This document shows, in pieces, positions 19,249-42,885 of a stretch of DNA of 64,000 nt. This DNA is from Candidatus Gastranaerophilales bacterium (GTDB taxonomy: Bacteria; Cyanobacteriota; Vampirovibrionia; Gastranaerophilales; Gastranaerophilaceae): assembly GCA_017467305.1 (NCBI GenBank), contig JAFTSM010000065.1:1353-65352 (forward strand). Direction: 5' to 3'. The translations under genes were made by a program, and so were the position numbers. The notes below the pieces were generated by a model that had not been told where the DNA came from, did no database searches, and was given only the letters and a program-made list of their open reading frames with translations. How positions within the stretch are numbered: the stretch's first letter is position 1; each line of letters starts with the position of its first letter.

Positions 19249-20040
19249 ATGACGTATACTCAGTCAAATAATGTTATATATCCAAATCAAACGGGTACTC
19301 CGTTATATACTTATGCGCCAAATTATCCGCAACAGCAACAAGTTGTGAGTGTTGCACCTCAGCCGGTTATTACTGCACCATATTATCAGTACCCTCAAAC
19401 TTCAATTTATAATGATCCGACTAAGCAAGCGGCATCTGGCGTTAATATCTATATTTATAATCCTTCTGGAATCGGTGGTCAAAGTTCATCTTCTACATTG
19501 AATTCGTATTCGACACCTCCAGCTGCACCAGCGCAACCTCAAGTTCAAGTAACACCGCAGGTACCTGCAGAAAAGGATATTGCACCTTCTCAACCTATTG
19601 CACAGCAACCAATAGCAGATACTTCAATTTCTAAGCCAGAAACTGATAAAACTAAGAGAATTGTTCAATTGACGGATGATTATATAAAATCTTTGGAAAG
19701 TTATTTGAGAAATCCTGATGAAACTGTAAGAAAGACTGCGATAAAGGAAATAATTCAACGTTTTGAAGAAGATGATTCAAGATATGATGACCCTGCTTTA
19801 ACAGCGTTGTTAAATATTGCACTTCAAGACCCAGTTCCAAATAATAGATTATTTGCTATGAGTGTAATTGCTGGTGGCAAAGCACATGGTGATGAAAATA
19901 CAATTAATATATTAAATAATTTAACTACTTCAGATAAAATGTATGGTCAAGAAGCCAAAATGGCATCGAGTGCATTAATTAAAGCTGCACAAGAAACAGA
20001 AACAGTTCCAGATTATTCAAAGGATAAAGATAAGCAATAA
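19249..20040 (+). CDS. hypothetical protein, P/Q-rich N-terminus with HEAT-like C-terminus
   Basis: Low-complexity PQQQQVVSVAPQP... is followed by RNPDETVRKTAIKEIIQRF...ALQDPVPNNRLFA, which is helical-repeat-like. Confidence 0.5.
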   Translation: MTYTQSNNVIYPNQTGTPLYTYAPNYPQQQQVVSVAPQPVITAPYYQYPQTSIYNDPTKQAASGVNIYIYNPSGIGGQSSSSTLNSYSTPPAAPAQPQVQVTPQVPAEKDIAPSQPIAQQPIADTSISKPETDKTKRIVQLTDDYIKSLESYLRNPDETVRKTAIKEIIQRFEEDDSRYDDPALTALLNIALQDPVPNNRLFAMSVIAGGKAHGDENTINILNNLTTSDKMYGQEAKMASSALIKAAQETETVPDYSKDKDKQ

Positions 20041-21470: not shown

Positions 21471-21523
21471 GAAATAGTCATAATATGGTAAACTATACTT
21501 AGTTTAGAATATTAGGTTTGAAT

Positions 21524-22396
21524 ATGCCTTTAGTATCCGTAATAATGAGCACATATAATAGAGGATTAATGCTTGCAGAAGCTATTGATTCTGTATTAAA
21601 TCAATCTTTTGATGATTTTGAGTTTATTATTATTGATGATGCTTCAACTGATAATACGGAAGAAATTATAAAAAGTTATTCAGATAGCCGTATACGCTAT
21701 TTTAAGAATAGATTTAATTGTGGGTGTACGTTTAACTACCATAACGCAAATAACCTTGCTAGGGGCAAGTATGTGGCGCATATTGATGATGATGATATCT
21801 TTTTACAAGATAAATTAAAAAAACAAGTTGATTATTTAGAAAAAAATCAAAATATAGATATGGTTGGTACATTTGTTGATACCTTTGGTGAGGGTGTAAG
21901 ACCTTCTTGGGTATTTTATACAGAGCCAGCTGTTATAGATTTTTGCATGAACTTTTTTAATCCTATATGTCATTCTTCAGTAATGTATAGGAAATCGTTT
22001 ATAGATAAGCATGCTGTAAACTACGATATTAGAAAAAGATGTGCACAAGATTATGATTTTTATAAACAGTTTATCTTTAATGGTGGCTTGATATCTAATA
22101 TTCCAGAGATGTTGGTAAAGTATAGGATGCATGCCAACCGTTTGACAGATGTAAAAGAAACACAAGATATCCAGATTAATAATGCTGAAATTATTAAAAA
22201 AGAGCTGATAAATAGATTTTTAGATGATAGTTTATACCATAAATTTATAGAATTAATGGGTGGTTTTCCATTTAATCAATATGATGTTGATAGAGTTGAA
22301 GAAGCGTTAAATATGCTGTTTGAAGCTTCTTGTTATGAAAGAGAAGTATTAGAAAAAGTAGTAGAAGACATAAAAAATAATAAATTTAGATTTTAG
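21524..22396 (+). CDS. family 2 glycosyltransferase
   Basis: VSVIMSTYNRGLMLAEAIDSVLNQSFDDFEFIIIDDASTDNT...HIDDDD is the GT2 (GT-A) signature. The ATG at 21524 is preferred over the TTG at 21518. Confidence 0.8.
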   Translation: MPLVSVIMSTYNRGLMLAEAIDSVLNQSFDDFEFIIIDDASTDNTEEIIKSYSDSRIRYFKNRFNCGCTFNYHNANNLARGKYVAHIDDDDIFLQDKLKKQVDYLEKNQNIDMVGTFVDTFGEGVRPSWVFYTEPAVIDFCMNFFNPICHSSVMYRKSFIDKHAVNYDIRKRCAQDYDFYKQFIFNGGLISNIPEMLVKYRMHANRLTDVKETQDIQINNAEIIKKELINRFLDDSLYHKFIELMGGFPFNQYDVDRVEEALNMLFEASCYEREVLEKVVEDIKNNKFRF

Positions 22397-22576: not shown

Positions 22577-23566
22577 TTATTTCAACGCATATTTTTGAAT
22601 TATATCTTCAACTTTTGAGTATACGGAGCATTTAATTCCTCTTTTTTTAGCTTCTTCTTTAAAGAGGGTATACATTTCTCCATAGTGTGGTGGGAAAGGT
22701 TTTTCGTCTAAGTTTGTGAATAATGCCCATTTATTATCTATAGTAAATTCAACCATTTTGATGCCAATATCTGACATTAAATCAAAGAATTTAATAATTT
22801 CTTCTTTATTATCATTAAAGTGTTCTACTAGTATGTATTTAACTATAATTGGTGGATTTTCTCTTCCTTTTGAGTATTCTCTCAAATTTTTTACAGAGTC
22901 ATTAAATTTATCAACTCTTTTTAATTTTTTATATGTTTCTGGAGTTCCACAATCTAATGAAGTAAAGAGTAATACTTTATTCAAATCCATTAATTTTTTT
23001 ATGATTGGTTGATAAACAATATTATTTGTTAAAATATGGATTTGTTTTACTCCGTTTTTTAAAAATTCTTTTATCATTTTTTCAAATTCTTTTAAAACAG
23101 AAATATCTCCACCTTGAATTACTGCAACCAATTCTTTTCTATTAAGTAGGTTTTGCTTGTAGAGTTCTTTTAATAGTGGAACAAAATCATAGTATTGGCT
23201 TTTTCCACTTTTGTAGGTTATTTCTCCGTGTGAATCAAACATTCTTGCGCAATAAATACAACCACAATTACATTGAGTCCAATGGCTTACATTTAGCATT
23301 GTGTATTGTTGTGAAATAACATCATTTTCTGTTTTTTCTTTTAAAAAGAAGCAACCTTTACAAGGTGATTTTTCTATATCTTCTTCATTCAATAGTGCAA
23401 ACGCATCTAGTTTTGTTTGTTTGAATTTTTTCCAGTCGATTCTTTTCCCTCTATAAGCTTCTTCATATACTGGACCAATTTGACCAGTACAGCAAGACAT
23501 TATTCTATCGTGGAAACAAGATAAGACATTATTTAATTCATTACAAAAATATTGTTTTTTTGTCAT
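22577..23566 (-). CDS. radical SAM protein, clade A (A1)
   Basis: CX3CX2C = CNCGCIYC. The N-terminal Cys motif is FC...SCC...CKGC. It has IQGGDIS, SLDCGTPETYKKLKRVDKF and VKYILVEHFNDNKEEI. By eye more than half its residues are identical to A6 (28768). Confidence 0.8.
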   Translation of the reverse strand: MTKKQYFCNELNNVLSCFHDRIMSCCTGQIGPVYEEAYRGKRIDWKKFKQTKLDAFALLNEEDIEKSPCKGCFFLKEKTENDVISQQYTMLNVSHWTQCNCGCIYCARMFDSHGEITYKSGKSQYYDFVPLLKELYKQNLLNRKELVAVIQGGDISVLKEFEKMIKEFLKNGVKQIHILTNNIVYQPIIKKLMDLNKVLLFTSLDCGTPETYKKLKRVDKFNDSVKNLREYSKGRENPPIIVKYILVEHFNDNKEEIIKFFDLMSDIGIKMVEFTIDNKWALFTNLDEKPFPPHYGEMYTLFKEEAKKRGIKCSVYSKVEDIIQKYALK

Positions 23567-25661: not shown

Positions 25662-26654
25662 ATGCGTAAAAGATATTATTGTAAAAGACTTAATGAAACA
25701 CTAAACTTTGATGCACTTAAAGTATTTTATTGTTGTGCAACAAGAAATGGTCCTTCAATTGATGTTCCAAAACCAGATAAAATAAAAGATATTATAAAAA
25801 GAAGAAATTCTTTAATTAAAATGTTAGATAGAGGAGTGATTCCTCAAGAGTGTGTTGGTTGTTTTGATTTAAAAGAACAAGAAAATCCTAAACCTTTAAT
25901 TATAAGTCAGTTATCAAAGCCACCAAAAGCAAATATGATAATTGTTAAACACTTTAAACAATGTGATTGTAGTTGTGTTTATTGTTGCGAGCAGTACCTT
26001 TCTGAAAGAAAAATTGTTCTAAAATCTAAAAAAAGTGATTATTATGATTTGCTTCCTATAATTGAAGAACTCTATAAACAAGATATTGTTGATAAAAAAG
26101 AATTAGATGTTCATTTTCAGGGTGGTAATGTGTCTGTTCTTGATGAGTTTGATGATTTAGTTAATATCTTTATCAAAAATGGTGTAAAGCGTGTAGAAAT
26201 TGCTACAAATGGTATTAAATATCTTCCTCAAATTGAACAAATATCTAATAAAACTTTTGTTGATGTAAATATTTCTATTGATGCAGGTACAAGAGAAACT
26301 TATAAAAAGATTAAAACTGTTAATAAATTTGAAGACTTAGTTGAAAACTTAAAAAAGTATGCTAAATTACCAATTCTTTTGAGACTCAAATATATTTTGG
26401 TAAGAGGTATTAACGATAATAAAGAAGAACTAGAAAATTATATTAACCTTATGAAGGAAGTTGGTATTACAAATTCTGAACTTATGATTGATCAATGTGA
26501 TAGTGAGTTTCTTCAAAATGGTGAGTTTAAAATACCAGAATATTACTATGAATTATTCTCTTTTTATAAAGAAAAATGTGCTGAACAAGGTATAAAAGCA
26601 ACCATTTGGGAGTATATAGAGGAAATTTTACAAAAAGGTTCATTTTTTAAGTAA
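25662..26654 (+). CDS. radical SAM protein, clade A (A4)
   Basis: CDCSCVYC, FQGGNVS, SIDAGTRETYKKIKTVNKF, LVRGINDNKEEL. Confidence 0.8.
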   Translation: MRKRYYCKRLNETLNFDALKVFYCCATRNGPSIDVPKPDKIKDIIKRRNSLIKMLDRGVIPQECVGCFDLKEQENPKPLIISQLSKPPKANMIIVKHFKQCDCSCVYCCEQYLSERKIVLKSKKSDYYDLLPIIEELYKQDIVDKKELDVHFQGGNVSVLDEFDDLVNIFIKNGVKRVEIATNGIKYLPQIEQISNKTFVDVNISIDAGTRETYKKIKTVNKFEDLVENLKKYAKLPILLRLKYILVRGINDNKEELENYINLMKEVGITNSELMIDQCDSEFLQNGEFKIPEYYYELFSFYKEKCAEQGIKATIWEYIEEILQKGSFFK

Positions 26655-27665
26655 ATCTTTGATTTTTTCAATGAAACTCTTTTTAATTGGTTTTAAGTTT
26701 TTTAAATAGTCATTAACTACGCAACAGTCGTCTTTAAAAATAGGGTCTGATAATAGTTTAACTATATCATTATATTTTGGATGTGTTGGAAGTGAAACAT
26801 CTAATTCATTCATTAGAGAATCAGAGTCTATTTGCCTATGGTAGTTTATAAAAAATGCTTTCGCATCAAGTTTTTTTGCTAGTTGGGCAAATTTTTTCAT
26901 CTCTTTATAGTTAATAGATGTCACTACAAAATTAAGTTGTAATCCATTTAATAAACCTTGTTTTTTTAACTCTGATAAATATTCAACATTTTTTATTAGT
27001 TCTTTGAAATTACCGTGTTCTACAAGTTTATTGTATGTCTTTTCAGTTGCACTATGTATAGAGATAATAACTGTGCTTAGACGTGATTTTAAGTCTAGTT
27101 CTTCTATTCTCTCTTTAGTGAATAAAGTTCCGTTTGAGATTATATTAAACTTAATTTTAGGGTTTATTTTTATGATTTTTCTTACTACGTCTATTGAGTG
27201 TTTACTTGCAAAAAGTTCACCAGCTGAATTCATTTCAACTATTTCAGCTTTTTCTAATATTGGAGTAAATATTCTATCAAAATTTTCTTCAATACGTTTT
27301 TCTTTTGCTCTGTTATATTCTTCTTCTTCTTTGTTTGGTTTTGTTCTGCAAAAAATACAACGGACGTTACAGCGTCTATCGTAACTAAATTCAATTTGCT
27401 TTGGATATTCTGCTGTTAAGTCTTCGTTTATATTTATTTCTTTTTGAAATGGATCACAGACATCTAATTTACAATATTTGAAATTGTTTTCTATAAATTG
27501 TTTTCTAAAAGCTTTTGCTTTTTCTCCATTCCAAATTTCATCAAAAGATTGTTCAAAAATATTTCCAAAAGAATAAAAATCGGTCCAATAACAACAACAA
27601 CAATATACTTCGCCCGTGTTTTGGATTTGTATAGTATGAAATGGATGATTGCAAATTTTACTCAT
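26640..27665 (-). CDS. radical SAM protein, clade B, N-terminal SPASM/twitch-like motif (B1)
   Basis: The N-terminus is CNHPFHTIQIQNTGEVYCCC...SFGNIFEQSFDEIWNGEKAKAFR...YCKLDVC. It is followed by CNVRCIFC (CX3CX2C), NSAGELF and SIHSATEKTYNKLV. Confidence 0.8.
   Translation of the reverse strand: MSKICNHPFHTIQIQNTGEVYCCCCYWTDFYSFGNIFEQSFDEIWNGEKAKAFRKQFIENNFKYCKLDVCDPFQKEININEDLTAEYPKQIEFSYDRRCNVRCIFCRTKPNKEEEEYNRAKEKRIEENFDRIFTPILEKAEIVEMNSAGELFASKHSIDVVRKIIKINPKIKFNIISNGTLFTKERIEELDLKSRLSTVIISIHSATEKTYNKLVEHGNFKELIKNVEYLSELKKQGLLNGLQLNFVVTSINYKEMKKFAQLAKKLDAKAFFINYHRQIDSDSLMNELDVSLPTHPKYNDIVKLLSDPIFKDDCCVVNDYLKNLKPIKKSFIEKIKDLLKK
27511..27585 (-). repeat. near-identical ~60-nt segment shared by B1, B2 and B3 (copy 1)
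   Basis: TTTTGCTTTTTCTCCATTCCAAATTTCATCAAAAGATTGTTCAAAAATATTTCCAAAAGAATA encodes SFGNIFEQSFDEIWNGEKAK. Confidence 0.8.
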
Positions 27666-27742: not shown

Positions 27743-28732
27743 TTGAAATACGTTAGTTGTCAAAATATACAGAATGGGTTGCGATTTGAATATAATGCTA
27801 TAAAACTTTGCTGTTTTATGAGTGGGAACACTCCGGAGCCTTTGTTTATAAAAAAGGATTATTGGGGTGAAAAGCTCGATTGGAAAGAAGTTGTTGATAG
27901 TATATATAAAATCAGAGAAAATCAAAAGAATGGGATAACTCCAGCTGAATGTGTTGGTTGTTTTGGTTTGCAAGAACGTGAATGGGATGATAACCCAAAA
28001 TTTAAATGGATTCAAATAGCGCATTGGTCTGAATGTAATTGTAACTGTACATATTGTTATCGTTTGCAAAGTAATTTTGAAAAGCCTAAAAAACGCTATA
28101 AAATCATGCCAATAATTAAAGAATTAGATAAAATGAATATGCTTGATTACAATGGTGAATTAGCATATTCGGGTGGTGAACCAGCAAGTTTGAGAGAATT
28201 TGATGATATTACAAATTTTTTCCTAAAAAAAGGAATGAGAATTATTATGGTTCACTCTAATGGTATTAAACCAGTAAAATCCGTTTTAAAAGGGCTAAAA
28301 ACAGATACAATGTCTGTAACTGTTAGTGTTGATTGTGGTGATAGACAAAAATTTAAACAAATAAAACAAGTTGATGCTTATAACAAAGTTATGGATACAT
28401 TAAAGAAGTATGTTAAAGCTCAAGGAAATGATAAAACATCTGTTCGTTCAAAATACATTATTATTCCTAGAGTAAATGATACTAAAGAAGATGTAGATAA
28501 ATGGCTTGATGAAACACAAAGAGTTGGAATACAAAAAGTTATTCTGGATTTTGAAGCAGATTGGCTAGAAAGAAATAAACATAACATCCCAGAATATATT
28601 GATGAGTTGTATCAATATATAGTTGATTCAACAAAACAACGAGGAGTTGAATTGCAATTTTATGGTGTAGCTACTCAATATAGAGAAATAAAAAAGCTTA
28701 ATGTTGAGGGCTATGGATTACATCAAGAGTAG
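27743..28732 (+). CDS. radical SAM protein, clade A (A5)
   Basis: TTG start behind AGGAG. CNCNCTYC, SGGEPASL, SVDCGDRQKFKQIKQVDAY, IIPRVNDTKEDV. Confidence 0.8.
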   Translation: MKYVSCQNIQNGLRFEYNAIKLCCFMSGNTPEPLFIKKDYWGEKLDWKEVVDSIYKIRENQKNGITPAECVGCFGLQEREWDDNPKFKWIQIAHWSECNCNCTYCYRLQSNFEKPKKRYKIMPIIKELDKMNMLDYNGELAYSGGEPASLREFDDITNFFLKKGMRIIMVHSNGIKPVKSVLKGLKTDTMSVTVSVDCGDRQKFKQIKQVDAYNKVMDTLKKYVKAQGNDKTSVRSKYIIIPRVNDTKEDVDKWLDETQRVGIQKVILDFEADWLERNKHNIPEYIDELYQYIVDSTKQRGVELQFYGVATQYREIKKLNVEGYGLHQE

Positions 28733-29753: not shown

Positions 29754-30797
29754 CTACTTTTTCTTTAATATTTTATCTATAAAACAAAGAAAATTTTTTT
29801 CTTCTTTTAGTGGAAGTATTAATTGGGGATTAATTCTTGGTTCAAAATAACAAACATAAGATGCTAATTCTTTTTTTCTTAGTTGTCTAAGAAAATCTTT
29901 GTATAGTGAATTATCTGGTTCAAAGACAGCTATTTCTTTATATTTTTTTGCAAGAGTTGTATGTTCCCAAGGTTGGTAACAAGTATAGCTAACTGAGATG
30001 TTTAGTTTTTTTGCAATATTTGCCATTTTTGCCATTTCTTTATAATTGTATTTAGAGATAACCATAGTAATAGTAACTGATTCAATATTGCCTTTTTCTT
30101 TTTCTTTTGCAATGAATTTTAAAATTTTCATAACAGCAGAAAAATTACCTTTGCAAACGATTTTATTATATGTTTTTTCAGTTGCACCAGGAATTGAAAT
30201 TCTTATATCTTTAATTTTTCCTCTTAAATTTAATTTTTCATATAATTCTTTAGTCAACAATATTCCGTTAGTATCTATCTCAAATAATATATTGGGATGA
30301 ATATTAGTAACATAATTTATAAGATTAATTCCATTCTTGCTTGCAAAAACATCTCCTGAAGTACTTAATTCAATTATTTCTACATCATCAAGTAATGGGA
30401 TGATTTTTTCTGTTATTTCTTTTTGTTTGTCAGAAAAAGCTAGCTTTATTTCGTCTCTACAAGTTTTACAAGCAACATTGCAAACAGTATCGTATGCTAA
30501 TTTTAAATATTTACAAGATTTATCATTTTCCCAATGTTTGAGAATGTCTTCTTTATTTCTTTTATTTTAATATGTACATATATCTAAATTACATAAAGAA
30601 TAGTCATTGTTTAGAATTTTTTCTCTAAAGTCATTTGCTTTTTTTGAATGCCATACTTCTTGAAAGTTATTTTCTAGTAAATTTCCAAAAGAGTAAAAAT
30701 CTACAAATCGTGGGCAACAAGGATAAACATTTCCATCGTCAGAAATTTCAGCCATATAAAACGGTAAATAGCAGACTTTATCGTTTGTAGAGTTCAC
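29754..30797 (-). pseudogene. clade B radical SAM gene interrupted by one in-frame TAA (codon 77)
   Basis: The track fragments 30567-30797 (N-terminal SPASM-like part) and 29754-30260 (C-terminal part) are in the same frame (1044 nt = 348 codons). My reverse-strand translation across 30261-30566 is open and reads ...DKSCKYLKLAYDTVCNVACKTCRDE...STSGDVFASK.... The only stop is TAA at 30567-30569. Confidence 0.75.
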
Positions 30798-31864
30798 TAT
30801 AATACTCCAAATATTTTACATTTATTTCTTATTTTGTTTTTTAAATTATCCCAGAAAGAAATCGGCTCTAATCCCACAAAATAATCATGGCCTTGAATTA
30901 CAACATCTTTTGCATTTAAGAATTCTTGTGAATGAACTAGTTTTACTAGTTTATTGTAGTCTGGGTGTTTTTTATCTTGAATATTGATTTTGTTATAAGT
31001 TTCCTCTAAATCTCTTGAACAATCCAAACCTAATAGACGAACTTTTGCATCTATTCTTCTGCATAATTTAATGATATCTAGTATTTCTTTATAGTTAATG
31101 CTTGTAACAGTAAAATGAAGTTCAAATCTATCCATTTTTCTTTCTTTCTTCATTTGAGAAAGATATTCTATATTTTTAATAACTTTTTTATAATTACCAC
31201 CTTTTACGATTTTGTTGTAGGTCTTTTCTGTAAAAGCATGTAGAGAAACAGTCATCATTGAAATTTTATCTGTGATATTTAATTTTTCTAAATTTTCTTT
31301 TGTACATTGGATTCCGTTTGTAATTATTTCAAATTTAACATTAGGAAATTTGCTGGCAATATTTTTAATTAAATCTCTAGAAATTTTGCTCGCAAAAACT
31401 TCTCCAACTGCATTTGTTTTAACGTATTTTGCCTTTTCTAGCCAAGGAGATAGTATTTCTAATAATTTATCTTCTTTATCTTTCGGAATTAAATTAGTAT
31501 CGACTTTATAATTTTCTCCACGGCAGAAAATACATTTTACATCACATAATTCATCTAAACCTAAAAGAATTCTCTCTGGTGGCTCTGAAATAAGTTTAGG
31601 TTCTTTATCGTGAATTTCTTTTAATATTTCTAAATTTTGGCAACCAGGACATAAGGAAAAATCATTGTCGTAAAGCTTTTGACGAAATTTTTTTGCTTTT
31701 TCTCCATTCCAAATTTCATCAAAAGATTGTTCAAAGATATTTCCAAAAGAATATCCTCTAATCCAGCCACAACTACATGGGTATACATTTCCATATGGCA
31801 TAATTTCTGCCAAAATATATGGATTTGGACAATATATGTGTTTATTTGTATTATTATCTACCAT
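30797..31864 (-). CDS. radical SAM protein, clade B (B2)
   Basis: YCPNPYILAEIMPYGNVYPCSC...SFGNIFEQSFDEIWNGEKAKKFR, then CDVKCIFC. Its TAG stop overlaps the GTG start of the downstream pseudogene by 1 nt. Confidence 0.8.
   Translation of the reverse strand: MVDNNTNKHIYCPNPYILAEIMPYGNVYPCSCGWIRGYSFGNIFEQSFDEIWNGEKAKKFRQKLYDNDFSLCPGCQNLEILKEIHDKEPKLISEPPERILLGLDELCDVKCIFCRGENYKVDTNLIPKDKEDKLLEILSPWLEKAKYVKTNAVGEVFASKISRDLIKNIASKFPNVKFEIITNGIQCTKENLEKLNITDKISMMTVSLHAFTEKTYNKIVKGGNYKKVIKNIEYLSQMKKERKMDRFELHFTVTSINYKEILDIIKLCRRIDAKVRLLGLDCSRDLEETYNKINIQDKKHPDYNKLVKLVHSQEFLNAKDVVIQGHDYFVGLEPISFWDNLKNKIRNKCKIFGVL
31691..31753 (-). repeat. near-identical segment shared by B1, B2 and B3 (copy 2)
   Basis: Same string as 27511-27585, with a single visible substitution (A to G) in the core. 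Confidence 0.8.
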
Positions 31865-32886: not shown

Positions 32887-33888
32887 TTAAAAAAATCTAT
32901 ATTTTAATTTTTCCCATAAGCTAATCGGTTTTAAATTTAGCATAGTATCGTTTATTGTACATATTTCTGAGCGAAAAACTGGATTTTTTAGTACCTTAAC
33001 AAAATCATTGAATTTTGGATGTTTTTCATCAAATATATTGATTTTTTCATATATATCTTTGTTTGTTTCAAGTTTTAAAAGTTCTAAAAAACCGACTGTA
33101 GCACCAATTTTTTGTGCCATTTTCATATAAAGTACCATTTCTTTATAGTTATATGCATTTACTACAAAATTAAGAATAAATCTATCTAGTTTTCCTTCTT
33201 TTTTGAGTGAAGAAAGAAAAGTTAAATTATTCATTACTCTATCAAAATCACCATTTACTACGAGTTTATTATAAGTTTCTTTCTTTGTTGCGTGTAGAGA
33301 AACAGTTATAGAAATTAATTTATCTATTATTCCTAATTCCTCTAAATTTTGTTTATCGCATAAAATTCCATTGGATATGAGCGAAAATTTTACATTTGGG
33401 AATAATTCAGAAATTCTTTTAATTAGTTTTCTAGAATGTGGACTAAATAGCGCCTCCCCAACACCAGATAAAACAACATTTTCAGCATTTTCTAACATGT
33501 TTTGAATTATAGAATCCATATTCTCATCAAAATATGATAAATCTTGTTTTTGATGGCAACTTCTGCAGAAAATACATTTTACGTTACAAAGAGAGTCATA
33601 GCAGAATATAAATTTTTTAGGTTTTGGAACAACTTCTGTTGGAATTATCTTATGAGAACAATCTTTTACACACAAATCCAAGTTACAAATATTGTAGTTT
33701 TCATTGATAAATTGGCGTCTAAATTCTTTTGCTTTTTCTCCATTCCAAATTTCATCAAAAGATTGTTCATAAATGTTTCCAAAAGAATATGAATTACACC
33801 AAGGAGGACAGCAAACAAAAACATCACCTTGCATACTTATTTGTGCAGAGTCAAATGGGAATGTACAAATTGCATGTTTTTCTGTCAT
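32887..33888 (-). CDS. radical SAM protein, clade B (B3)
   Basis: The start is moved to the ATG at 33888 (MTEKHAICTFPF...), which is preceded by GGAGG. CNVKCIFC. SFGNIYEQSFDEIWNGEKAKEFR. Confidence 0.8.
   Translation of the reverse strand: MTEKHAICTFPFDSAQISMQGDVFVCCPPWCNSYSFGNIYEQSFDEIWNGEKAKEFRRQFINENYNICNLDLCVKDCSHKIIPTEVVPKPKKFIFCYDSLCNVKCIFCRSCHQKQDLSYFDENMDSIIQNMLENAENVVLSGVGEALFSPHSRKLIKRISELFPNVKFSLISNGILCDKQNLEELGIIDKLISITVSLHATKKETYNKLVVNGDFDRVMNNLTFLSSLKKEGKLDRFILNFVVNAYNYKEMVLYMKMAQKIGATVGFLELLKLETNKDIYEKINIFDEKHPKFNDFVKVLKNPVFRSEICTINDTMLNLKPISLWEKLKYRFF
33727..33789 (-). repeat. near-identical segment shared by B1, B2 and B3 (copy 3)
   Basis: TTTTGCTTTTTCTCCATTCCAAATTTCATCAAAAGATTGTTCATAAATGTTTCCAAAAGAATA has two or three substitutions relative to copy 1. 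Confidence 0.8.
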
Positions 33889-33939
33889 AAAACCTCCGTA
33901 TGTAAAAGTGTATAATAAAATAGCCAATTTAGTCTAATT

Positions 33940-33971: not shown

Positions 33972-35003
33972 ATGAAATATAAATGTTGTGACCATATTTT
34001 AGGAAGTATAGACCTTAGTTTTAGTGGGTTTAAATATTGTAATGAAGTTTGGGAAGGTCCAGAATATATTTTATATACGGATGAAAATGCCTTTGAAAAG
34101 AATGAACAAAGACGTCTCGAAATCATTGAAAAAATGAAAAATGGTTATATTCCAGAACATTGTAAATTGTGTCCAATGTTAGAAGAAAAAGATTGGAAAG
34201 AGTTTGACGGAAAAATTCATAAAATAACTGTTTTTAACTGGAAACATTGTAATGCTGCGTGTTTTTACTGTAGTGTTCATTCCGATTTTTATGATGGGGT
34301 GAAGAAAAGTGATGATTATGATTCATTCCCGATAGTACAAAAATTAGTTGAACAAGGAAGGTTAACAAAAGATTCATTTATTGCTTTTATGGGTGGTGAA
34401 CCTACTATGCTTGAAGAATTTCCTCAAATATTACAACTTTTGCTTGAACATGGTTGTAGACTAGAAGTATTAACTAATGGAATTAAATATGAACAATTGA
34501 TTGGTAAGATGTTAAAAGAAGAAAATAATAATACAATTTGTATTTCTTTAGATTGTGGTTCGAAGGAATTATATAAAAGAATAAAACGAGTTGATAAATT
34601 TGATGATGTTGTTTCGACTATAGAAAAATATGTTCAAGTCGCACAAGATAAAGCAAATAGAGTAAAAATTAAGTATATTATTTTCCCAAATGTTAATGAT
34701 AATAAAAAAGAAATAGATGCTTTTTTTGAAGTGTGTAAAAAAATGGGGGTAAAAACAGTTGCAAGAGCTGTAAATCATGAAGAAAGCAAAATTAAAACTA
34801 CAAAAAATCAAGTGATTGAAAGCTCTGTAATTAAAGCTTATAAATACTTTGAAAATCAAGCAATAAAACTTGGTTTTGAACTTCAGCCAGAACCTTGGGC
34901 AGATGCTATTATTGAAAATAAAGTTTATAACTGTAGAAAAATATCTTTAATTACAAGATTAAAATCAGAAATGCACTTCCTTTTTGGAAACAAGAAGAAT
35001 TAA
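33972..35003 (+). CDS. radical SAM protein, clade A (A8)
   Basis: MKYKCC..., CNAACFYC, MGGEPTML, SLDCGSKELYKRIKRVDKF, IFPNVNDNKKEI. Confidence 0.8.
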   Translation: MKYKCCDHILGSIDLSFSGFKYCNEVWEGPEYILYTDENAFEKNEQRRLEIIEKMKNGYIPEHCKLCPMLEEKDWKEFDGKIHKITVFNWKHCNAACFYCSVHSDFYDGVKKSDDYDSFPIVQKLVEQGRLTKDSFIAFMGGEPTMLEEFPQILQLLLEHGCRLEVLTNGIKYEQLIGKMLKEENNNTICISLDCGSKELYKRIKRVDKFDDVVSTIEKYVQVAQDKANRVKIKYIIFPNVNDNKKEIDAFFEVCKKMGVKTVARAVNHEESKIKTTKNQVIESSVIKAYKYFENQAIKLGFELQPEPWADAIIENKVYNCRKISLITRLKSEMHFLFGNKKN

Positions 35004-36421
35004 TCGAATTTTATATTTCCTAGTTTTATTCCCTTATATTTTTTCTTTATAATCATTTTTTGTATTTGAAAAATAATTGGTATTTTAACTAGATTAAATG
35101 TAATCTCTGAATAACTTGTTTTAATCATTTCATCTAGTGTCTTATCGTAAGATAACTTACTAGTAGATAGTTCTACATCAAAGCCAAGTCTAAGTAATTG
35201 CATAATAATCTCATTAAAATCTTTTGTTTTTGTGATTTCATTTTTTGAAGTTAGAAATACTTTTCTCTTTGGCGAAAATTTTTCATTTTGAACTAAGTTA
35301 TCAATATCCTTGTTTATAAAAGAAAGCACGTCTTCATCTAAATTCAAATACAAATTTCTATATTGTTCGTCAAAATCAATATTTTTTATGTCTTTTAAAT
35401 CTATAGTTGAATTGAGCGCATTAACTTGTTTTTCATAAATTCTTTTTGCTCTGTTCATAAATGCTAAAAATGAAGTTACTTTTATATTATATTTTTCAGC
35501 AAGTAATTCGGTGTATTTAAGCATCTTTAATGTTCTATTTACATATTTTTTATTTTCACAGTTTTCAGAGGATGAAACACTGTGTTCAGAGTCAAATTGA
35601 ACTTCAATGTGTCCTATATTTTTACAATTTTTTAGCCAAGTTTCTACTTCTAAGCTAGTATCATTGTAGTTAGTGAATAATATAAATTTAGAAATAATAA
35701 AGTCTTTTTTTCTTGCATGTTTTAAATATGTTTGCATATTCTTCATTACAATATCAAAGAATTTAGTTCCTTTTACCTTTTCAAAAGTTTCTTTAGTACC
35801 AGAATCAACGCTTGCAACAATAGCAGCGCTTTCTACTTTTTGAAGCGCATTACATAAACTTTTAGAGAGTCTTATCGCAGATGTTGGCACATAAATTTCT
35901 GGAACGTTGTTTTTTGAAAATAAGTCAACTAACCAATCAAATTCTTTCATTAATGTTGGCTCTCCACCAACAAAACGAAGTGAACCATTAAATCTTAGTA
36001 GATTTTTCTCCAAAAGTTCATTGATTATTGGTTTCATGTCAACATCTTGTTCTCTATTATGACAATCTGGTATTCTTCCAATAGGACAGTACACACAACG
36101 AGAATTGCATTTCATAATATGACCAGCTGTTAAGTGATTAATATAATCTTCATTATCCCAATCGTGTTCCTTTAACTCAAAACAACCTTCACATTGAGAA
36201 GGATATATTCCTTTTTTTGCATTTTCTCTATATTTTCTTTTTTGTTCAAAAATATAGTCCCAATTTAATGTTTGATTTTTTAAATCATCATATAGATACA
36301 AACGATGTGGTAAATCCAAGTGGTCAGTATTGCAACAATGACCAACACATAGCTGTTTACTTCCTGGGTCTAAATAAAAATATATTCCGTGCTCTAATAA
36401 TCTACAACTTTTGTATTTCAT
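35000..36421 (-). CDS. radical SAM protein, clade A with ~150-aa C-terminal extension (A9)
   Basis: MKYKSC..., CNSRCVYC, VGGEPTLM, SVDSGTKETFEKVKG. The extra C-terminal region has no recognisable motif. Confidence 0.75.
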   Translation of the reverse strand: MKYKSCRLLEHGIYFYLDPGSKQLCVGHCCNTDHLDLPHRLYLYDDLKNQTLNWDYIFEQKRKYRENAKKGIYPSQCEGCFELKEHDWDNEDYINHLTAGHIMKCNSRCVYCPIGRIPDCHNREQDVDMKPIINELLEKNLLRFNGSLRFVGGEPTLMKEFDWLVDLFSKNNVPEIYVPTSAIRLSKSLCNALQKVESAAIVASVDSGTKETFEKVKGTKFFDIVMKNMQTYLKHARKKDFIISKFILFTNYNDTSLEVETWLKNCKNIGHIEVQFDSEHSVSSSENCENKKYVNRTLKMLKYTELLAEKYNIKVTSFLAFMNRAKRIYEKQVNALNSTIDLKDIKNIDFDEQYRNLYLNLDEDVLSFINKDIDNLVQNEKFSPKRKVFLTSKNEITKTKDFNEIIMQLLRLGFDVELSTSKLSYDKTLDEMIKTSYSEITFNLVKIPIIFQIQKMIIKKKYKGIKLGNIKFD

Positions 36422-37583: not shown

Positions 37584-38570
37584 GTGCAAAATTTATATTG
37601 TAGTAATTTATTAAATTGTTTAAGTTTTCACCAAAAGAATGTAAGATTTTGTACTACTTTGCAACTTGGTGAAATTATTTCAACTTATCAAGAAAAACCT
37701 AAAGAATTAGCACAAAGAATAATAGAAATAAGAGAAAATATAAACAAGCAACTTGCACAATGTATTATTCCGAATGGATGCGAAAATTGTATTTATCGTA
37801 ATCAAGAAGATTATAAAACAGTAAAAATAAGAAGAATAGATTTGTATTATTGGTATCACTGTAATTGTGGCTGTTTTTATTGTTCATATAGGGATGAAAC
37901 AAAGGGGGAATTTTCTGATAAGGTAAAAGAAGGTAATCCTTTAATCTATAAAACATTGGAAGAATTATATAAAAAGGATTTAATTGATAAAAATAATCTT
38001 TTTGTTAATTTTGGTGGTGGTGAGTTAGGCGTGTTAAAAGAATATCCCAAATTGGTGAACTTATTTTTAAAAAATAATGTTCAAAATATTTGGTGTGAAA
38101 CTTCTGGAATTAGATATTCTAAGGAGTTGGCAAAGGCTTTAGAAAAAGGTAAGGCGGGATTATCGATAGCTATATGTAGTGGCTCAAGAGAAACTTATAA
38201 AAAAATAAAAAAGAGAGATAAGTACGAACAAGTTTTAAAAAATTTAAAAAATTATGTAAAGGCTGCTAAAAAATTTAAACAAGATCAAAATAATGATTGT
38301 CGCGTTATTTCTAAATATATTATTTTACAAGGATTTAATAATAATAAAGATGAAATTGACAAATGGTTATTGGCGTCTAAAAGTATAGGTATAAAATCTG
38401 TTGAAATAAGTATGGAATTTTGTTGGGGAATTCATACAAAAAAAGGTCAGAAAGTTGAAGATTACAACTATGAATTGTTTGAATATACAGAACAAAGATG
38501 TCTTGAACTTGGCTTGAATTTAAGAAAAAATGATACATCTATGGCTATTATGGAGCAAGGAACTTATTAA
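37584..38570 (+). CDS. radical SAM protein, clade A (A11)
   Basis: GTG start 2 nt after the A10 stop. CNCGCFYC, GGGELGVL, ICSGSRETYKKIKKRDKY. Confidence 0.75.
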   Translation: MQNLYCSNLLNCLSFHQKNVRFCTTLQLGEIISTYQEKPKELAQRIIEIRENINKQLAQCIIPNGCENCIYRNQEDYKTVKIRRIDLYYWYHCNCGCFYCSYRDETKGEFSDKVKEGNPLIYKTLEELYKKDLIDKNNLFVNFGGGELGVLKEYPKLVNLFLKNNVQNIWCETSGIRYSKELAKALEKGKAGLSIAICSGSRETYKKIKKRDKYEQVLKNLKNYVKAAKKFKQDQNNDCRVISKYIILQGFNNNKDEIDKWLLASKSIGIKSVEISMEFCWGIHTKKGQKVEDYNYELFEYTEQRCLELGLNLRKNDTSMAIMEQGTY

Positions 38571-39558
38571 TTTTAAATAATTTTTCAAAAATATTTTTAT
38601 GTTTTAATTTTAGAAGATTTTGGTTTATAGAAACAAAATCTTCTTTAAAAATGGGGTGTTGTAATATTTTAATAAATTTATTATGGTTTCTATGTTCTGG
38701 ATTTATTACATTGATTTCATTGTAGATTTTATCTGGTATTTCATATTTTATTAAATTTAAAAAAACTACGTTTGCGCCAGAACTTTTGGCTATTTGGGCA
38801 AAGTTAACCATTTCTTTATAGTTATAGTCTGTTATTACTGCTCTAAATTGAAGAATATTAATTAAACCTTCTTGCTTTAGTTTTATTGCATAATTTATAT
38901 TTTCCATTACTGTATCAAAATTACTATTTTTAACAATTTTATTGTAAGAATTTTTATTAAAGGTATGAAAAGAAATCCCAACGAGATTTAGTTTTTCTTT
39001 AATACCAAGTTCTATTAAATTTTTTTCATTGAAAAGTAAACCATTTGTAAGTATGTCAAATTTGATATTGGGGTATGTCTTTGCAATTTTTTTTATCAAA
39101 TTTCTGGAATGTAAACTTGCAAATGCTTCTCCTGCTGATGCTATATTTACGTTTTTAACATCTTTAAATAAATCAGAAACCTTATCTTCAATGATTTTGA
39201 ATGGTTCCAAATATTTTTGATTATTATTTGGTTTGCAAAAAATACAGTTAACATTGCAAGTTCTATCATATCCTAAAAGAACTGATGCTGGTCGTTTGTG
39301 AACAATTGGTTCTATTCTAATTGAATCATCATTAGATCTATGCGGCAAACAAATATTGAGTTTACAATATTTGAAATTTTTATCTGTAAACTGTTTTCTA
39401 AAGTTTAAAGCTTTTTCTCCATTCCAAATTTCAGAAAAATTTTTTTCTAAAATGTTACCAAAAGAATAGTTTGAACAATATGTTGTACAACAAGGGTGTA
39501 CGTCTCCATAATCATCTATATTTGCACACGTATATGGTAATTCGCAGTATAAGTCCAT
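38548..39558 (-). CDS. radical SAM protein, clade B (B4)
   Basis: The start is moved to the ATG at 39558 (MDLYCELPYTC...) by analogy with the other B N-termini. YSFGNILEKNFSEIWNGEKALNFR. CNVNCIFC. Confidence 0.75.
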   Translation of the reverse strand: MDLYCELPYTCANIDDYGDVHPCCTTYCSNYSFGNILEKNFSEIWNGEKALNFRKQFTDKNFKYCKLNICLPHRSNDDSIRIEPIVHKRPASVLLGYDRTCNVNCIFCKPNNNQKYLEPFKIIEDKVSDLFKDVKNVNIASAGEAFASLHSRNLIKKIAKTYPNIKFDILTNGLLFNEKNLIELGIKEKLNLVGISFHTFNKNSYNKIVKNSNFDTVMENINYAIKLKQEGLINILQFRAVITDYNYKEMVNFAQIAKSSGANVVFLNLIKYEIPDKIYNEINVINPEHRNHNKFIKILQHPIFKEDFVSINQNLLKLKHKNIFEKLFKINKFLAP

Positions 39559-39626
39559 ACCACTAATTATATGGAAAATATTGTTATTAATCAAATTAAA
39601 AGTTATAATTAGTCGGTGGAGATTTA

Positions 39627-40529
39627 ATGTTTAAAATTTTATTCAAAAAAAAGTTAAAATATTTAGTCATTGGAGCAGGTTCAACTGGTGCGACTTTTGC
39701 TTGTTTTTTACATTCTGCAGGAAAAGATGTAACGCTTCTTTCTAAGTATGATGATATAGTAAATAATGCAAAAGAAAAGGGGGGCATTAAGTTAATTTCT
39801 AGTGTAAAAGGAAAGAAAAGATACAATATAAAAATTAAAACTGAAAAAACTTATAAAGAAAAAGCTGATGTGATAATTCTTTGTATTAGAACGCCTGATA
39901 TTCTATCTGCAATTCCTTTTATTAAAAAAGTTTCGCATAAAAAAACAATTGTTACATCAATTGCAAATGGCTTTGGAATTGCGTATGCCTTAAAAAAGGC
40001 ACTTCCTAAACTTTTGATTTTAGATTCTAATTTTGTAGGTAAATGCCGATGGTATAATCGTAAGGATGTAGAGTATTTACAGCAAAGAGAATATTGTGAG
40101 TTCAATTTTGCAGACAAATATAATTTAATCGATAAAAAAACTTTAAAACAAATAGAAATAGACTTTACTGATGCAGGCATGAATACTACTATGATGTCTG
40201 AAAAACAATTTACAGAAGTTGCGTTTGAACGATTAATAACTCGTTCTCCTTTTGAGGCTACATGTATTTATTATGATATATGTGCACATGATTTTATCGG
40301 TGAAAAATTAGATACGTTTAAAATTCTTTGTAATGAACTATTAATTCTTGCAAAGGCTATGAATATAAATGTTAGAGAAAATTTTTTAGAAGAATATTAT
40401 CAAAATTTTGAACTATATAAAGAACGTGATGATGCAAATGTATATTCATCAATTTTAAATGATATGAAAATTGAACAATGTTCAGAAATAGATTTTCTAT
40501 TTTTTATTGTTGTTGAACTTGCAAAATAA
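39627..40529 (+). CDS. ketopantoate reductase (ApbA/PanE)-like NAD(P)-dependent oxidoreductase
   Basis: The N-terminal Rossmann motif is YLVIGAGSTGATFACFLHSAGKDVTLL. Length ~300 aa and two-domain layout fit the 2-dehydropantoate 2-reductase family. It is the only non-radical-SAM gene in the array. Confidence 0.6.
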   Translation: MFKILFKKKLKYLVIGAGSTGATFACFLHSAGKDVTLLSKYDDIVNNAKEKGGIKLISSVKGKKRYNIKIKTEKTYKEKADVIILCIRTPDILSAIPFIKKVSHKKTIVTSIANGFGIAYALKKALPKLLILDSNFVGKCRWYNRKDVEYLQQREYCEFNFADKYNLIDKKTLKQIEIDFTDAGMNTTMMSEKQFTEVAFERLITRSPFEATCIYYDICAHDFIGEKLDTFKILCNELLILAKAMNINVRENFLEEYYQNFELYKERDDANVYSSILNDMKIEQCSEIDFLFFIVVELAK

Positions 40530-40648: not shown

Positions 40649-41689
40649 TTATGACCAGCCGTATTTTTTGTAGAAGTTTATCTTGTTTTTTATAACATCT
40701 GCAAATGAATTTGGTCTTAGGTGTTTAAATCCATCGTTAATTAAGAAATCATCATTATGTTTTATTAATGGATTATTCATTATCTTAACAAAATTATTAT
40801 ATTCTGGGTGTGTAGGATTTGTTATTATATATTTATCTAGTTGACTAAGAAATTTTGTACCTTGTCCCATATCTTTTGCAATCATTACGTGGACATATGC
40901 ACCCAGTTCTTTTGCAAATTTAGTTAGTGGTATTAAATCTTTATAGTTTAGTGATGTTAAAACACAATTAATTGTTAATTTCTTGATTTTTTCTTGTTTT
41001 CTTAATTGTGATACATATTCAAGATTTTTCATAACACTCTTAAAATTGCCATTTCTAACAATTTTGTTATATGTTTCTTCAATACAAGATGGTATGGATA
41101 TCCTTATATCAACAATTTTATCTGCTATTCCTAATTTTTTGAGATTTTCTTCACTACATAAAATTCCGTTTGTTATGAGCGCAAATTTTATATTTGGATA
41201 TACTTCTGCAATTCTTTTTATTAACTTTTTTGAGTGTTCACTTATAAATACTTCTCCAGCGACATTTACTGTTACTAATTTTGCGTTTTTTAACATTGGA
41301 ATTAATACAGGTTCAATAAGTGCATCCCACTTTGCTTGGTCTTCTTTTGACATAATGTGGGGTTCATCTCTGCAGTATACACATTGTTGAACACAAGTAT
41401 TGTCATAACATAAACTTACCTCTTCTGGATATTCAGCTATAGATGTTTCAATTGGTTTACAAGTTTGTATTAAACATAAGTTAGTATCACAATATTTATA
41501 ATTTTTATCTATTATTGATTGTCTGAATTCTCTTGCTTTTTGTCCATTCCAAACTTCTTCGAAACTTTGCTCTAGTATATTTCCGATACAGTAACTGTCA
41601 TTCCATAATCTTGAGCAAAAATAGCAAAAACCATCTGTCCCGATTTCAAAAAAAATGTATGGTTTAACACAAAATCTATTCTCTGACAT
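40649..41689 (-). CDS. radical SAM protein, clade B (B5)
   Basis: FCVKPYIFFEIGTDGFCYFC...CIGNILEQSFEEVWNGQKAREFR, CVQQCVYC, VAGEVF, SIPSCIEETYNKIV. Confidence 0.8.
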   Translation of the reverse strand: MSENRFCVKPYIFFEIGTDGFCYFCSRLWNDSYCIGNILEQSFEEVWNGQKAREFRQSIIDKNYKYCDTNLCLIQTCKPIETSIAEYPEEVSLCYDNTCVQQCVYCRDEPHIMSKEDQAKWDALIEPVLIPMLKNAKLVTVNVAGEVFISEHSKKLIKRIAEVYPNIKFALITNGILCSEENLKKLGIADKIVDIRISIPSCIEETYNKIVRNGNFKSVMKNLEYVSQLRKQEKIKKLTINCVLTSLNYKDLIPLTKFAKELGAYVHVMIAKDMGQGTKFLSQLDKYIITNPTHPEYNNFVKIMNNPLIKHNDDFLINDGFKHLRPNSFADVIKNKINFYKKYGWS

Positions 41690-41790: not shown

Positions 41791-42885
41791 ATGAGTAGAG
41801 ATTTGTTTTGTAAAAATCCTTGGAATTGTTTAGAGTTAAATAATGATGGAAAGTGTTTTTTTTGTAACCCTTGTTTTTCTAATTTTAATTTGATTGGGAA
41901 TATTTTTGAAGATGATATAGATGAAATTTGGAATGGTGAAAAAGCTCAAAATTTCAGAAAGGATGTTTTGGAAAAGAAATATTCTTTTTGTAACTACGAA
42001 AATTGTAATGGTAATAAAGCCTCAGAGATTCCTTATAATGAACTTATTGCACCATATCCGGAATATATTAATATTGGTTATGATTATACTTGTGGGCAAC
42101 GTTGTATTATATGTAGAGATGATTATCAAGCGTTATCAGAAGATGAGTGCAAAAAATGGGAAGATAAACTTGAAACGCACATTCTTCCAATAACTTCTCA
42201 AGCAAAATATATGTTTGTAAACTGTCGTGGTGAATTTTTCGATAGCAAACATACGCAAAAAATGGTTTCTTCTATTTTGAGTAATAACCCTAGTATTAGA
42301 GTTGATTTTATTTCTAATGGAATAAAGTGTACTGAAGAAAATTTAAAGAAGCATGGATTGTTTGATAAAATATTTAAAATTCATATTTCATTACATGCTG
42401 CATCAAAAGAAACATATAAACGTATTTTTAGAACAGACAAATTTGATTCTGTTATGGAAAATGTTCGATATATTAGTTCTTTAAAAAAAGAAGGAAAAAT
42501 AGATGAGTTTGAAATAATGTTTGTTATAACAGATGCTAACTATAAAGATATGCCATCATTTGTTAAATTAGCAGAAGAACTTGATGCAAAAGCAGCTTTC
42601 TCTGCTTGTATAGGTGGATATGCTTCTTATATTATGAACCGTGAAGAGTATGCGGTATTTTATCAAAATCATCATAATTATAATAACTTTGTTAAAATGC
42701 TGAAAAATCCAATTTTTAATTCTTCTCATTGTTGGTTGCCAGATTATTTGCGTGAGTTAAAGCCAGTTAGCTTTATTCAATCATTTAAAAACAAGCTGAG
42801 ATACTTTGCTCGTACGAAGTTAAATATGAAAATTAAACAGACAAAAGGAAATATTCAAATATTTTCTCATGATACTTATAAGTGA
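41791..42885 (+). CDS. radical SAM protein, clade B (B6)
   Basis: FCKNPWNCLELNNDGKCFFC...LIGNIFEDDIDEIWNGEKAQNFR, CGQRCIIC, CRGEFF, SLHAASKETYKRIF. Confidence 0.8.
   Translation: MSRDLFCKNPWNCLELNNDGKCFFCNPCFSNFNLIGNIFEDDIDEIWNGEKAQNFRKDVLEKKYSFCNYENCNGNKASEIPYNELIAPYPEYINIGYDYTCGQRCIICRDDYQALSEDECKKWEDKLETHILPITSQAKYMFVNCRGEFFDSKHTQKMVSSILSNNPSIRVDFISNGIKCTEENLKKHGLFDKIFKIHISLHAASKETYKRIFRTDKFDSVMENVRYISSLKKEGKIDEFEIMFVITDANYKDMPSFVKLAEELDAKAAFSACIGGYASYIMNREEYAVFYQNHHNYNNFVKMLKNPIFNSSHCWLPDYLRELKPVSFIQSFKNKLRYFARTKLNMKIKQTKGNIQIFSHDTYK

Follow-up and report, generated by a model that had tools for sequence, protein, structure and literature searches.

The radical SAM array

The 64,000-nucleotide stretch of DNA considered here (the window, meaning the whole of what was analyzed) belongs to Candidatus Gastranaerophilales bacterium. 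It spans positions 1353 to 65352 of contig JAFTSM010000065.1 (C38:1353-65352), part of a 1.85-Mb metagenome-assembled genome that consists of 75 contigs and is 89% complete. Positions 22577 to 46085 hold an array of 21 radical S-adenosylmethionine (SAM) genes and a single gene for an ApbA/PanE-like reductase (39627-40529), distributed over both strands in a region with a G+C content of about 27%. The radical SAM genes form two clades, with 14 genes of about 330 codons each in clade A and the remaining 7 in clade B. The subject of this analysis is clade B and, in particular, its first copy (copy 1 or B1; 26640-27665, minus strand), which encodes a protein of 341 amino acids. Its N terminus carries a cysteine-containing module of the SPASM/twitch type, placed ahead of the radical SAM core rather than behind it.

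The N-terminal module of clade B

The module occupies codons 1 to 75 of copy 1 (27441-27665). An earlier note on this DNA, made from the letters alone, had claimed that all seven clade B copies begin with a SPASM/twitch-like cysteine motif and that the CX3CX2C motif of the core follows only about 30 residues later. Both claims hold, to a degree that chance would not produce. When the seven copies are aligned, C5, P8, G18, C23, G34, N35, E38, E43, W45, K49, A50, F53, R54, and C65 are invariant, and C70 is found in six, with the copy at 30797-31864 having CPGC rather than CX4C at this place. PF13186, the Pfam SPASM profile, was searched with domain coordinates, as the note had proposed, and matches the N terminus of all seven copies (residues ~5 to 82) at 39.1 to 57.4 bits and E values of 9.4e-10 to 1.8e-15, well above its gathering cut-off of 21.5 bits. 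The Radical_SAM profile PF04055 (gathering cut-off, 29.5 bits) comes after it in the clade B proteins, scoring 32.8 to 51.5 bits in five of the six intact copies and 26.9 bits in the copy at 41791-42885. From the last twitch cysteine to the first cysteine of CX3CX2C, the distance is 26 to 31 residues in every copy. CX3CX2C itself is present in all seven, being retained as CNVACKTC even in a copy interrupted by a stop codon (29754-30797). The module is, then, a SPASM/twitch-type domain that precedes the core and is conserved throughout clade B.

In copy 1, PF13186 covers residues 5 to 66 (E, 1.2e-13) and PF04055 covers residues 97 to 262. The twitch domain, measured from Cys5 to Cys70, lies at 27456-27653, with C5, C23, C65, and C70 as the proposed ligands of an auxiliary [4Fe-4S] cluster, and the core motif (CNVRCIFC, residues 99 to 106) lies at 27348-27371. 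Could the N-terminal position be an artefact of a misplaced gene start, or the product of a gene fusion? Both were excluded. Upstream of the start codon there are three sense codons and then a stop (the open frame is 344 amino acids long), and the adjacent gene is divergent, so the module is truly N-terminal.

Conservation extends well beyond the window. Among 55 single-domain relatives, which are 23 to 41% identical, the invariant residues are C5, P8, C23, G34, R54, C65, and C70 in the module and C99, C103, and C106 in the core, the last three also being invariant across a broader set of 104 relatives. G149-E150, a GGE-type SAM motif, is invariant in a clade B alignment of 43 sequences (A2), and G149 is nearly so in the 55 relatives.

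The other clade B copies repeat the arrangement. On the minus strand, the copy at 29754-30797 has its twitch domain at 30576-30773 and CX3CX2C at 30459-30482. It carries an in-frame TAA at 30567-30569, and PF13186 matches the resulting 76-amino-acid N-terminal fragment with an E value of 1.5e-14. Next comes the 355-amino-acid copy at 30797-31864 (twitch, 31640-31831; CX3CX2C, 31523-31546; PF13186 at residues 12 to 76; E, 1.8e-15). It is followed on the same strand by copies at 32887-33927 (346 amino acids; twitch, 33670-33867; CX3CX2C, 33565-33588; PF13186 at residues 21 to 82; E, 1.4e-14), 38548-39594 (348 amino acids; twitch, 39349-39546; CX3CX2C, 39235-39258; PF13186 at residues 17 to 78; E, 2.5e-12), and 40649-41689 (346 amino acids; twitch, 41474-41671; CX3CX2C, 41372-41395; PF13186 at residues 7 to 68; E, 2.6e-10). 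The copy at 41791-42885 is on the plus strand and encodes 364 amino acids (twitch, 41809-42006; CX3CX2C, 42091-42114; PF13186 at residues 7 to 73; E, 9.4e-10).

A permuted twitch domain

SPASM domains are recognized by a seven-cysteine signature, CX9-15GX4C ... CX2CX5CX3C ... C, that holds two auxiliary clusters. The twitch domain of the BtrN/MoaA type is a truncated SPASM domain, with the CX9-15GX4C hairpin, a helix, and a closing cysteine pair that together provide three or four ligands for one auxiliary cluster. Which of the two is found in clade B? The CX2CX5CX3C block and the final cysteine of the SPASM signature are absent from the alignments of the clade B copies and of the 55 relatives. 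A sequence search of the PDB returned a single match, the twitch domain of BtrN, in which B1 residues 5 to 70 align with residues 169 to 232 of 4m7s_A (E, 2.5e-4) and C5, C23, and C70 fall on cysteines (numbering follows the aligned chain rather than the published structure). BtrN is the 2-deoxy-scyllo-inosamine dehydrogenase of PDB entries 4M7S and 4M7T and the prototype twitch enzyme, with ligands established for that structure. Because there are four conserved cysteines, no second SPASM half, and BtrN as the closest relative, the clade B module is classed, on the evidence of its sequence, as a one-cluster twitch domain and not a two-cluster SPASM domain.

The order of the domains can be read from curated profiles. 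In a scan of NCBIfam, the N-terminal residues of clade B align to the C-terminal SPASM regions of several families: residues 24 to 82 to positions 263 to 321 of 363 in the anSME profile TIGR03942, 24 to 80 to 270 to 325 of 370 in PRK13758, 18 to 58 to 261 to 299 of 354 in NirJ, 21 to 72 to 259 to 311 of 356 in DynA, 18 to 77 to 298 to 357 of 390 in TIGR04347, and 42 to 83 to 348 to 389 of 423 in TIGR04311. The clade B core (residues ~90 to 270), in turn, aligns to positions ~1 to 180 of the same or sister profiles, its best matches being the radical SAM/SPASM families TIGR04311, TIGR04317, AhbD, HxsC, and MftC. Since the N-terminal residues match the C termini of these profiles and the core matches their N termini, the auxiliary domain appears to have moved to the front. 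With its core of the SPASM/twitch-subgroup type, the protein looks like one in which the usual order, core and then twitch, has been permuted. SPASM/twitch domains are described as C-terminal extensions in a review (PMC9012708). Ordinary core-first SPASM/twitch enzymes are also encoded in this genome, on contigs C43, C44, and C69, and serve as an internal control.

The earlier note had read the module as an auxiliary Fe-S domain relocated to the N terminus. That part stands, in that a SPASM/twitch-type domain precedes the core in what the profile alignments indicate is a permuted order. The type needs narrowing, from SPASM to twitch. Overall, a twitch-first architecture for clade B can be held with high confidence.

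Predicted structure

An AlphaFold2 model of copy 1, built from the 43-sequence alignment, has a pLDDT (predicted local distance difference test score) of 90.6 and a predicted template modeling (TM) score of 0.87, with blocks of the N-terminal domain at pLDDT 77 to 96. This domain is modeled as a beta-hairpin (strands at residues 11 to 15 and 19 to 21) and two helices (41 to 45 and 48 to 58), followed by a core of the (beta/alpha)6 type and a helical tail. Foldseek comparison with the PDB recovers the core only and so does not bear on where the N-terminal domain sits; it extends over about 235 to 275 columns, the matches being viperin, NifB, BlsE, DesII, MoaA, and SkfB (E, 7e-9 to 1e-5; TM score over the query [TMq], 0.41 to 0.49). 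Neither the PDB sequence search nor Foldseek found a solved structure that shares the whole twitch-first layout.

Among predicted viral structures, the picture is different. Radical SAM proteins of uncultured Caudovirales match at full length, with TMq values of 0.72 to 0.73 over 335 to 358 columns, and weaker full-length matches include Q6WHP4 of Vibrio phage KVP40. The phage entries matched in BFVD include A0A6J5LJC9 and A0A6J5L3D5 alongside Q6WHP4. A tblastn search of a phage collection with B1 gave no match.

How common is the twitch-first order?

The seven window copies yielded a twitch-only profile 77 positions long. Among 1.84 billion cluster representatives, it matched 11,177 proteins at E values of 1e-3 or less and 674 clusters at 1e-10 or less. 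After omission of short fragments, 104 of the best 150 matches were inspected more closely. A recognizable C-x2-P...G-x3-5-C start was found in 93 of the 104, and in all 93 the CX3CX2C motif lies downstream of the twitch domain, by 90 to 131 residues (median, 100). None of these 93 has the canonical core-first order. All 104 also match NF033640 (N_Twi_rSAM, twitch domain-containing radical SAM protein), an NCBIfam family, with E values of 1e-5 or less and a best value of 1.3e-76. The earlier note had stated that its reading would fail as a novelty if the order proved to be that of a common, described subfamily. Such a subfamily does exist, represented by NF033640 and by hundreds of clusters.

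Does clade B belong to NF033640? No locus in this genome reaches the cut-off of that family, and because its scores are 33 to 58 bits against a cut-off of 170, clade B is placed outside it, as a diverged, uncatalogued sister group. No characterized member of NF033640 was found, nor any paper in the open literature on an N-terminal twitch or SPASM domain in radical SAM enzymes, and the literature on radical SAM enzymes of Gastranaerophilales yielded nothing relevant. The twitch-first order is already catalogued and widespread in sequence data, and no bench study of it was found. The distant relatives include one from Brachyspira and one Tara Oceans entry. The domain also appears in larger proteins. 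Some of the inspected matches are tandem fusions, and proteins that join two complete twitch-first units, with the order SPASM-rSAM-SPASM-rSAM (rSAM, radical SAM), include P0175 (1,188 amino acids), P0261 (969 amino acids), P0343 (846 amino acids), P0304, and P0229, and in P0336 a twitch domain is fused to SAM-dependent methyltransferase domains.

The N-terminal module of clade A

The clade A proteins also begin with a cysteine module. A representative is the 329-amino-acid product of 27743-28732 (plus strand), the divergent neighbor of copy 1, which has C-x16-C...C-x2-C and then CNCNCTYC, with a match to PF04055 and none to SPASM. Across 34 clade A copies, in which the spacing is C-x16-C ... 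C-x2-C, C5, C22, and C72 never vary, and at least 90% have C69. Is this module related to twitch? PF13186 matches none of the 34 modules, and the N-terminal part of NF033640 matches 3 of them (best E, 6.2e-7). In hhalign comparisons, the clade A module aligns to the module of the clade B paralogs with an E value of 0.016 and to a diverse twitch profile, with the core excluded, at 0.0043, compared with 0.031 for a reversed control, a weak signal. With the CX3CX2C anchor included, the latter alignment reaches 7e-8 with the four cysteines in register. Modeled in isolation, the module forms a hairpin-plus-helix unit (pLDDT, 89) that Foldseek could not match to any PDB entry (best E, 8). Homology to twitch is plausible but unproven. 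Thus, where the earlier note had described an analogous module in clade A, the four-cysteine pattern is borne out in the 34 copies, and kinship with twitch is weakly supported, PF13186 having matched 0 of 34.

One clade A copy (35000-36421, minus strand) encodes 473 amino acids, with about 140 extra residues at its C-terminal end. A weak match to a CodY-type helix-turn-helix (E, 6e-4) lies within the core of this protein and is probably spurious.

Distribution and evolution of the paralogs

The array is only part of a larger gene complement. Hidden Markov models built for each clade find about 41 clade A and 12 clade B copies in this genome, or about 53 in total, which amounts to about 3% of its coding capacity. 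Further arrays lie at C66:3987-14851, C25:12180-16257, and C20:21536-26197. A related genome has a syntenic radical SAM array (L001), and it too has the gene for the ApbA/PanE-like NAD(P)H oxidoreductase inside (L001:16778-17761). This gene is the only conserved non-radical-SAM gene of the array.

Of 41 genomes of this genus, 35 carry clade B, with 1 to 12 copies each. A further 80 genomes from elsewhere in the class, 14 of them in the same family, have none. Such a distribution suggests acquisition, or explosive expansion, at the level of the genus. The names attached to homologs include Candidatus Gastranaerophilales, Candidatus Avigastranaerophilus, and "Cyanobacteria bacterium SIG29," and their sources are rabbit, goat, chicken, and other gut metagenomes. 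A search for related loci with alignment A2 was saturated by Gastranaerophilales.

Two kinds of change can be seen among the clade B paralogs. (i) A tract of about 65 nucleotides (TATTCTTTTGGAAA..GAAAAAGCAAAAG) is nearly identical in the DNA of three twitch domains, at 27511-27585, 31691-31753, and 33727-33789. The proteins that share it are otherwise 41 to 43% identical, and the near-identity includes synonymous sites, a pattern that suggests gene conversion between paralogs. (ii) The copy at 29754-30797 is disrupted by its single TAA and is otherwise intact, making it a probable recent pseudogene. Several genomes of the genus likewise have clade B copies interrupted by in-frame stops, one to a few per copy, which could reflect recurrent recent inactivation.

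A proposal for function

What might the clade B enzymes do? Taken as a whole, the best explanation, and one that we regard as likely, is that the seven genes encode twitch-first radical SAM enzymes with one auxiliary cluster and a sugar-type substrate. The identity, order, and conservation of the domains are shown by the sequences; in the scheme that follows, the binding of Fe-S clusters, what the auxiliary cluster does, and the kind of substrate are what we infer. The protein would begin with a twitch domain of about 66 residues, a beta-hairpin and then helices, most likely binding one auxiliary [4Fe-4S] cluster fully ligated by C5, C23, C65, and C70. The linker of 26 to 31 residues would lead into a partial triosephosphate isomerase-barrel core with the CX3CX2C cluster and G149-E150, and a helical tail of about 70 residues lacking conserved cysteines would close the chain. 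By analogy to BtrN, the core cluster would cleave SAM to give a 5'-deoxyadenosyl radical able to abstract a hydrogen atom from the substrate, while the auxiliary cluster would accept or relay electrons in a two-electron oxidation or in a related rearrangement that is redox-neutral. The substrate would most likely be a sugar, a nucleotide-sugar, or a glycan. As for the chemistry, the chance that it is a BtrN-like radical oxidation or rearrangement of such compounds, with the auxiliary cluster as electron acceptor, seems to us to approach even without quite getting there.

The idea of a sugar substrate comes from gene neighborhoods. In five of five contexts outside Gastranaerophilales, sugar genes directly adjoin the twitch-first gene: a UDP-galactopyranose mutase gene and two glycosyltransferase genes at L077; UDP-glucose dehydrogenase and family 8 glycosyltransferase (GT8) genes at L078; two GT2 genes with genes for a polysaccharide pyruvyl transferase and a short-chain dehydrogenase at L079; sugar epimerase/dehydratase and GT1 genes at L080; and sulfotransferase and GT2 genes at L081. 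L077, L080, and L081 are phage-like contigs, carrying such phage genes as T4 rIIB, ribonucleotide reductase, lysozyme, and Clp protease, and in them the twitch-first gene stands beside glycosyltransferases. The glycan-gene context of these distant relatives suggests a role in sugar tailoring. Additionally, an ApbA-like reductase gene sits within both this array and L001, and the core has weak matches, by profile and by Foldseek, to BlsE and DesII, two enzymes that act on nucleotide-sugars. The proteins that flank the array (47702-49420 and 19249-20040) have no Pfam match. One contains a long repeat of TASTTAS, its counterpart is rich in proline and glutamine, and they could be glycosylated surface proteins and hence candidate substrates.

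Might the substrate be a peptide or a nucleotide instead? On this account, the architecture is the same and the paralogs are maturases of ribosomally synthesized and posttranslationally modified peptides (RiPPs) or of proteins, or else viperin-like antiviral nucleotide modifiers. Most characterized SPASM/twitch enzymes do modify peptides, viperins are the top fold matches in the PDB, and the core has weak matches to pVip/viperin models (PADLOC E of 7.7e-15, partial; 54 bits to NF038283). Defense loci, too, show strong diversification of paralogs, pseudogenes with a single stop, and tracts of gene conversion. However, the array has no small precursor open reading frame, RiPP recognition element domain, protease, or exporter. 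The viperin scores (54 and 45 bits against an NF038283 cut-off of 180) reflect the generic core only, viperins have no auxiliary cluster while clade B has an auxiliary-cluster domain, and no defense genes are adjacent. With the distant relatives tied to glycan genes in all five contexts, a peptide or viperin-type substrate is unlikely, though it is the strongest of the competing accounts.

Another possibility is that the module binds zinc, or has a purely structural or recognition function, and that it has neither an Fe-S cluster nor a part in redox chemistry. Four-cysteine modules of such a size are often zinc ribbons, and a few clade A modules give marginal matches to zinc-finger Pfam families (E, 0.01 to 0.08). 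For clade B, on the other hand, the matches to the SPASM model are strong and specific (E down to 2e-15), the BtrN alignment puts the cysteines on known cluster-ligand positions, and the noncysteine part of the twitch signature is kept (P8, G18, GN34-35, W45, and R54). All of this makes zinc binding or a redox-free role very improbable. Least probable, by a slight degree, is a full SPASM domain with two auxiliary clusters, as in anSME, PqqE, and AlbA: Pfam SPASM is matched nearly end to end (positions 1 to 64 or 1 to 67 of 67), NCBI names some homologs "SPASM domain-containing protein," and B1 has additional cysteines (CCCC at 22 to 25), but only C5, C23, C65, and C70 are invariant in the 55 relatives (C24 nearly so), the remaining SPASM cysteines are missing, the best solved relative is the one-cluster BtrN, and TIGR04085 stays below its cut-off.

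The proposal of twitch-first enzymes with one auxiliary cluster and a sugar substrate has its own difficulties, and the following points weigh against it. (i) A GT2 gene (21518-22396) abuts the array in the window, but in the eight genus relatives its ortholog is on other contigs (four genomes) or missing at an E value of 1e-30 (the other four). As strong evidence for sugars, this adjacency was dropped because it is not conserved within the genus. (ii) Within the genus, no consistent linkage to a precursor, transporter, or polymerase gene is seen, and so the substrate assignment rests on the distant relatives. (iii) One clade B copy has CX2C in place of CX4C, and the extra cysteine C24, nearly invariant in the 55 relatives, is outside the four proposed ligands. 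(iv) TIGR04085, the SPASM domain model of NCBIfam, scores 17.6 to 26.5 bits on the clade B copies, with a cut-off of 27. (v) The six intact copies score 33.5 to 58.5 bits against NF033640, far from its curated cut-off of 170, which sets them apart from that family. (vi) Many clade A copies are singletons scattered among unrelated housekeeping genes.

Implications

Textbooks and reviews treat SPASM/twitch domains as C-terminal extensions. The twitch-first class indicates that the auxiliary cluster can come from the other end of the chain. Clusters at 50% identity number in the hundreds across bacteria and phages, making the class a large one. Either a structure or an activity for even one member would close a real gap in radical SAM enzymology, and new anaerobic chemistry of sugars would probably come to light.

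For this window, the layout itself is ordinary, having been catalogued already. More striking is the amplification of the paralogs, to about 53 in the small genome of a gut member of the Melainabacteria and within one genus, which makes these organisms a natural choice for a substrate search. A more ambitious speculation, which we think improbable, is that clades A and B descend from one twitch-first ancestor and now form a set of some 50 diversifying enzymes (about 3% of a 1.85-Mb genome) for the combinatorial editing of a surface glycan or a shared scaffold. The copies appear to trade sequence through gene conversion and to be silenced by single stop codons, and under that speculation a host-associated bacterium would have a radical-chemistry route to surface variation. 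Its front-mounted auxiliary cluster would shut the barrel on the beta-1 side and form a channel for the substrate that no solved SPASM/twitch enzyme resembles.

Comparison with known systems

How does clade B compare with the enzymes already known? The likeness to BlsE, DesII, viperin, MoaA, and NifB is in the fold of the core barrel. These enzymes have no N-terminal twitch domain, and the resemblance is one of generic barrels only, with family scores far below the cut-offs. The canonical SPASM enzymes and families (anSME, PqqE, AlbA, NirJ, AhbD, MftC, TIGR04311, and TIGR04317) are closer. They are alike in the core (E, 1e-15 to 1e-22), and the N-terminal module of clade B corresponds to the opening half of the SPASM domain that these enzymes have at the C terminus. 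In contrast to clade B, however, they have the core first and possess the second SPASM half, with two auxiliary clusters where one would be expected in clade B.

BtrN shares with clade B a set of four cysteines consistent with one fully ligated auxiliary cluster. The twitch domain comes after the core in BtrN and before it in clade B, the closing cysteine pair is CX2C in BtrN and CX4C in clade B, and overall identity is low. The order of the domains, in contrast, is what clade B has in common with NF033640: positions ~2 to 62 of that profile align to clade B residues ~4 to 77, the N-terminal twitch domain, and positions ~100 to 356 align to the core.

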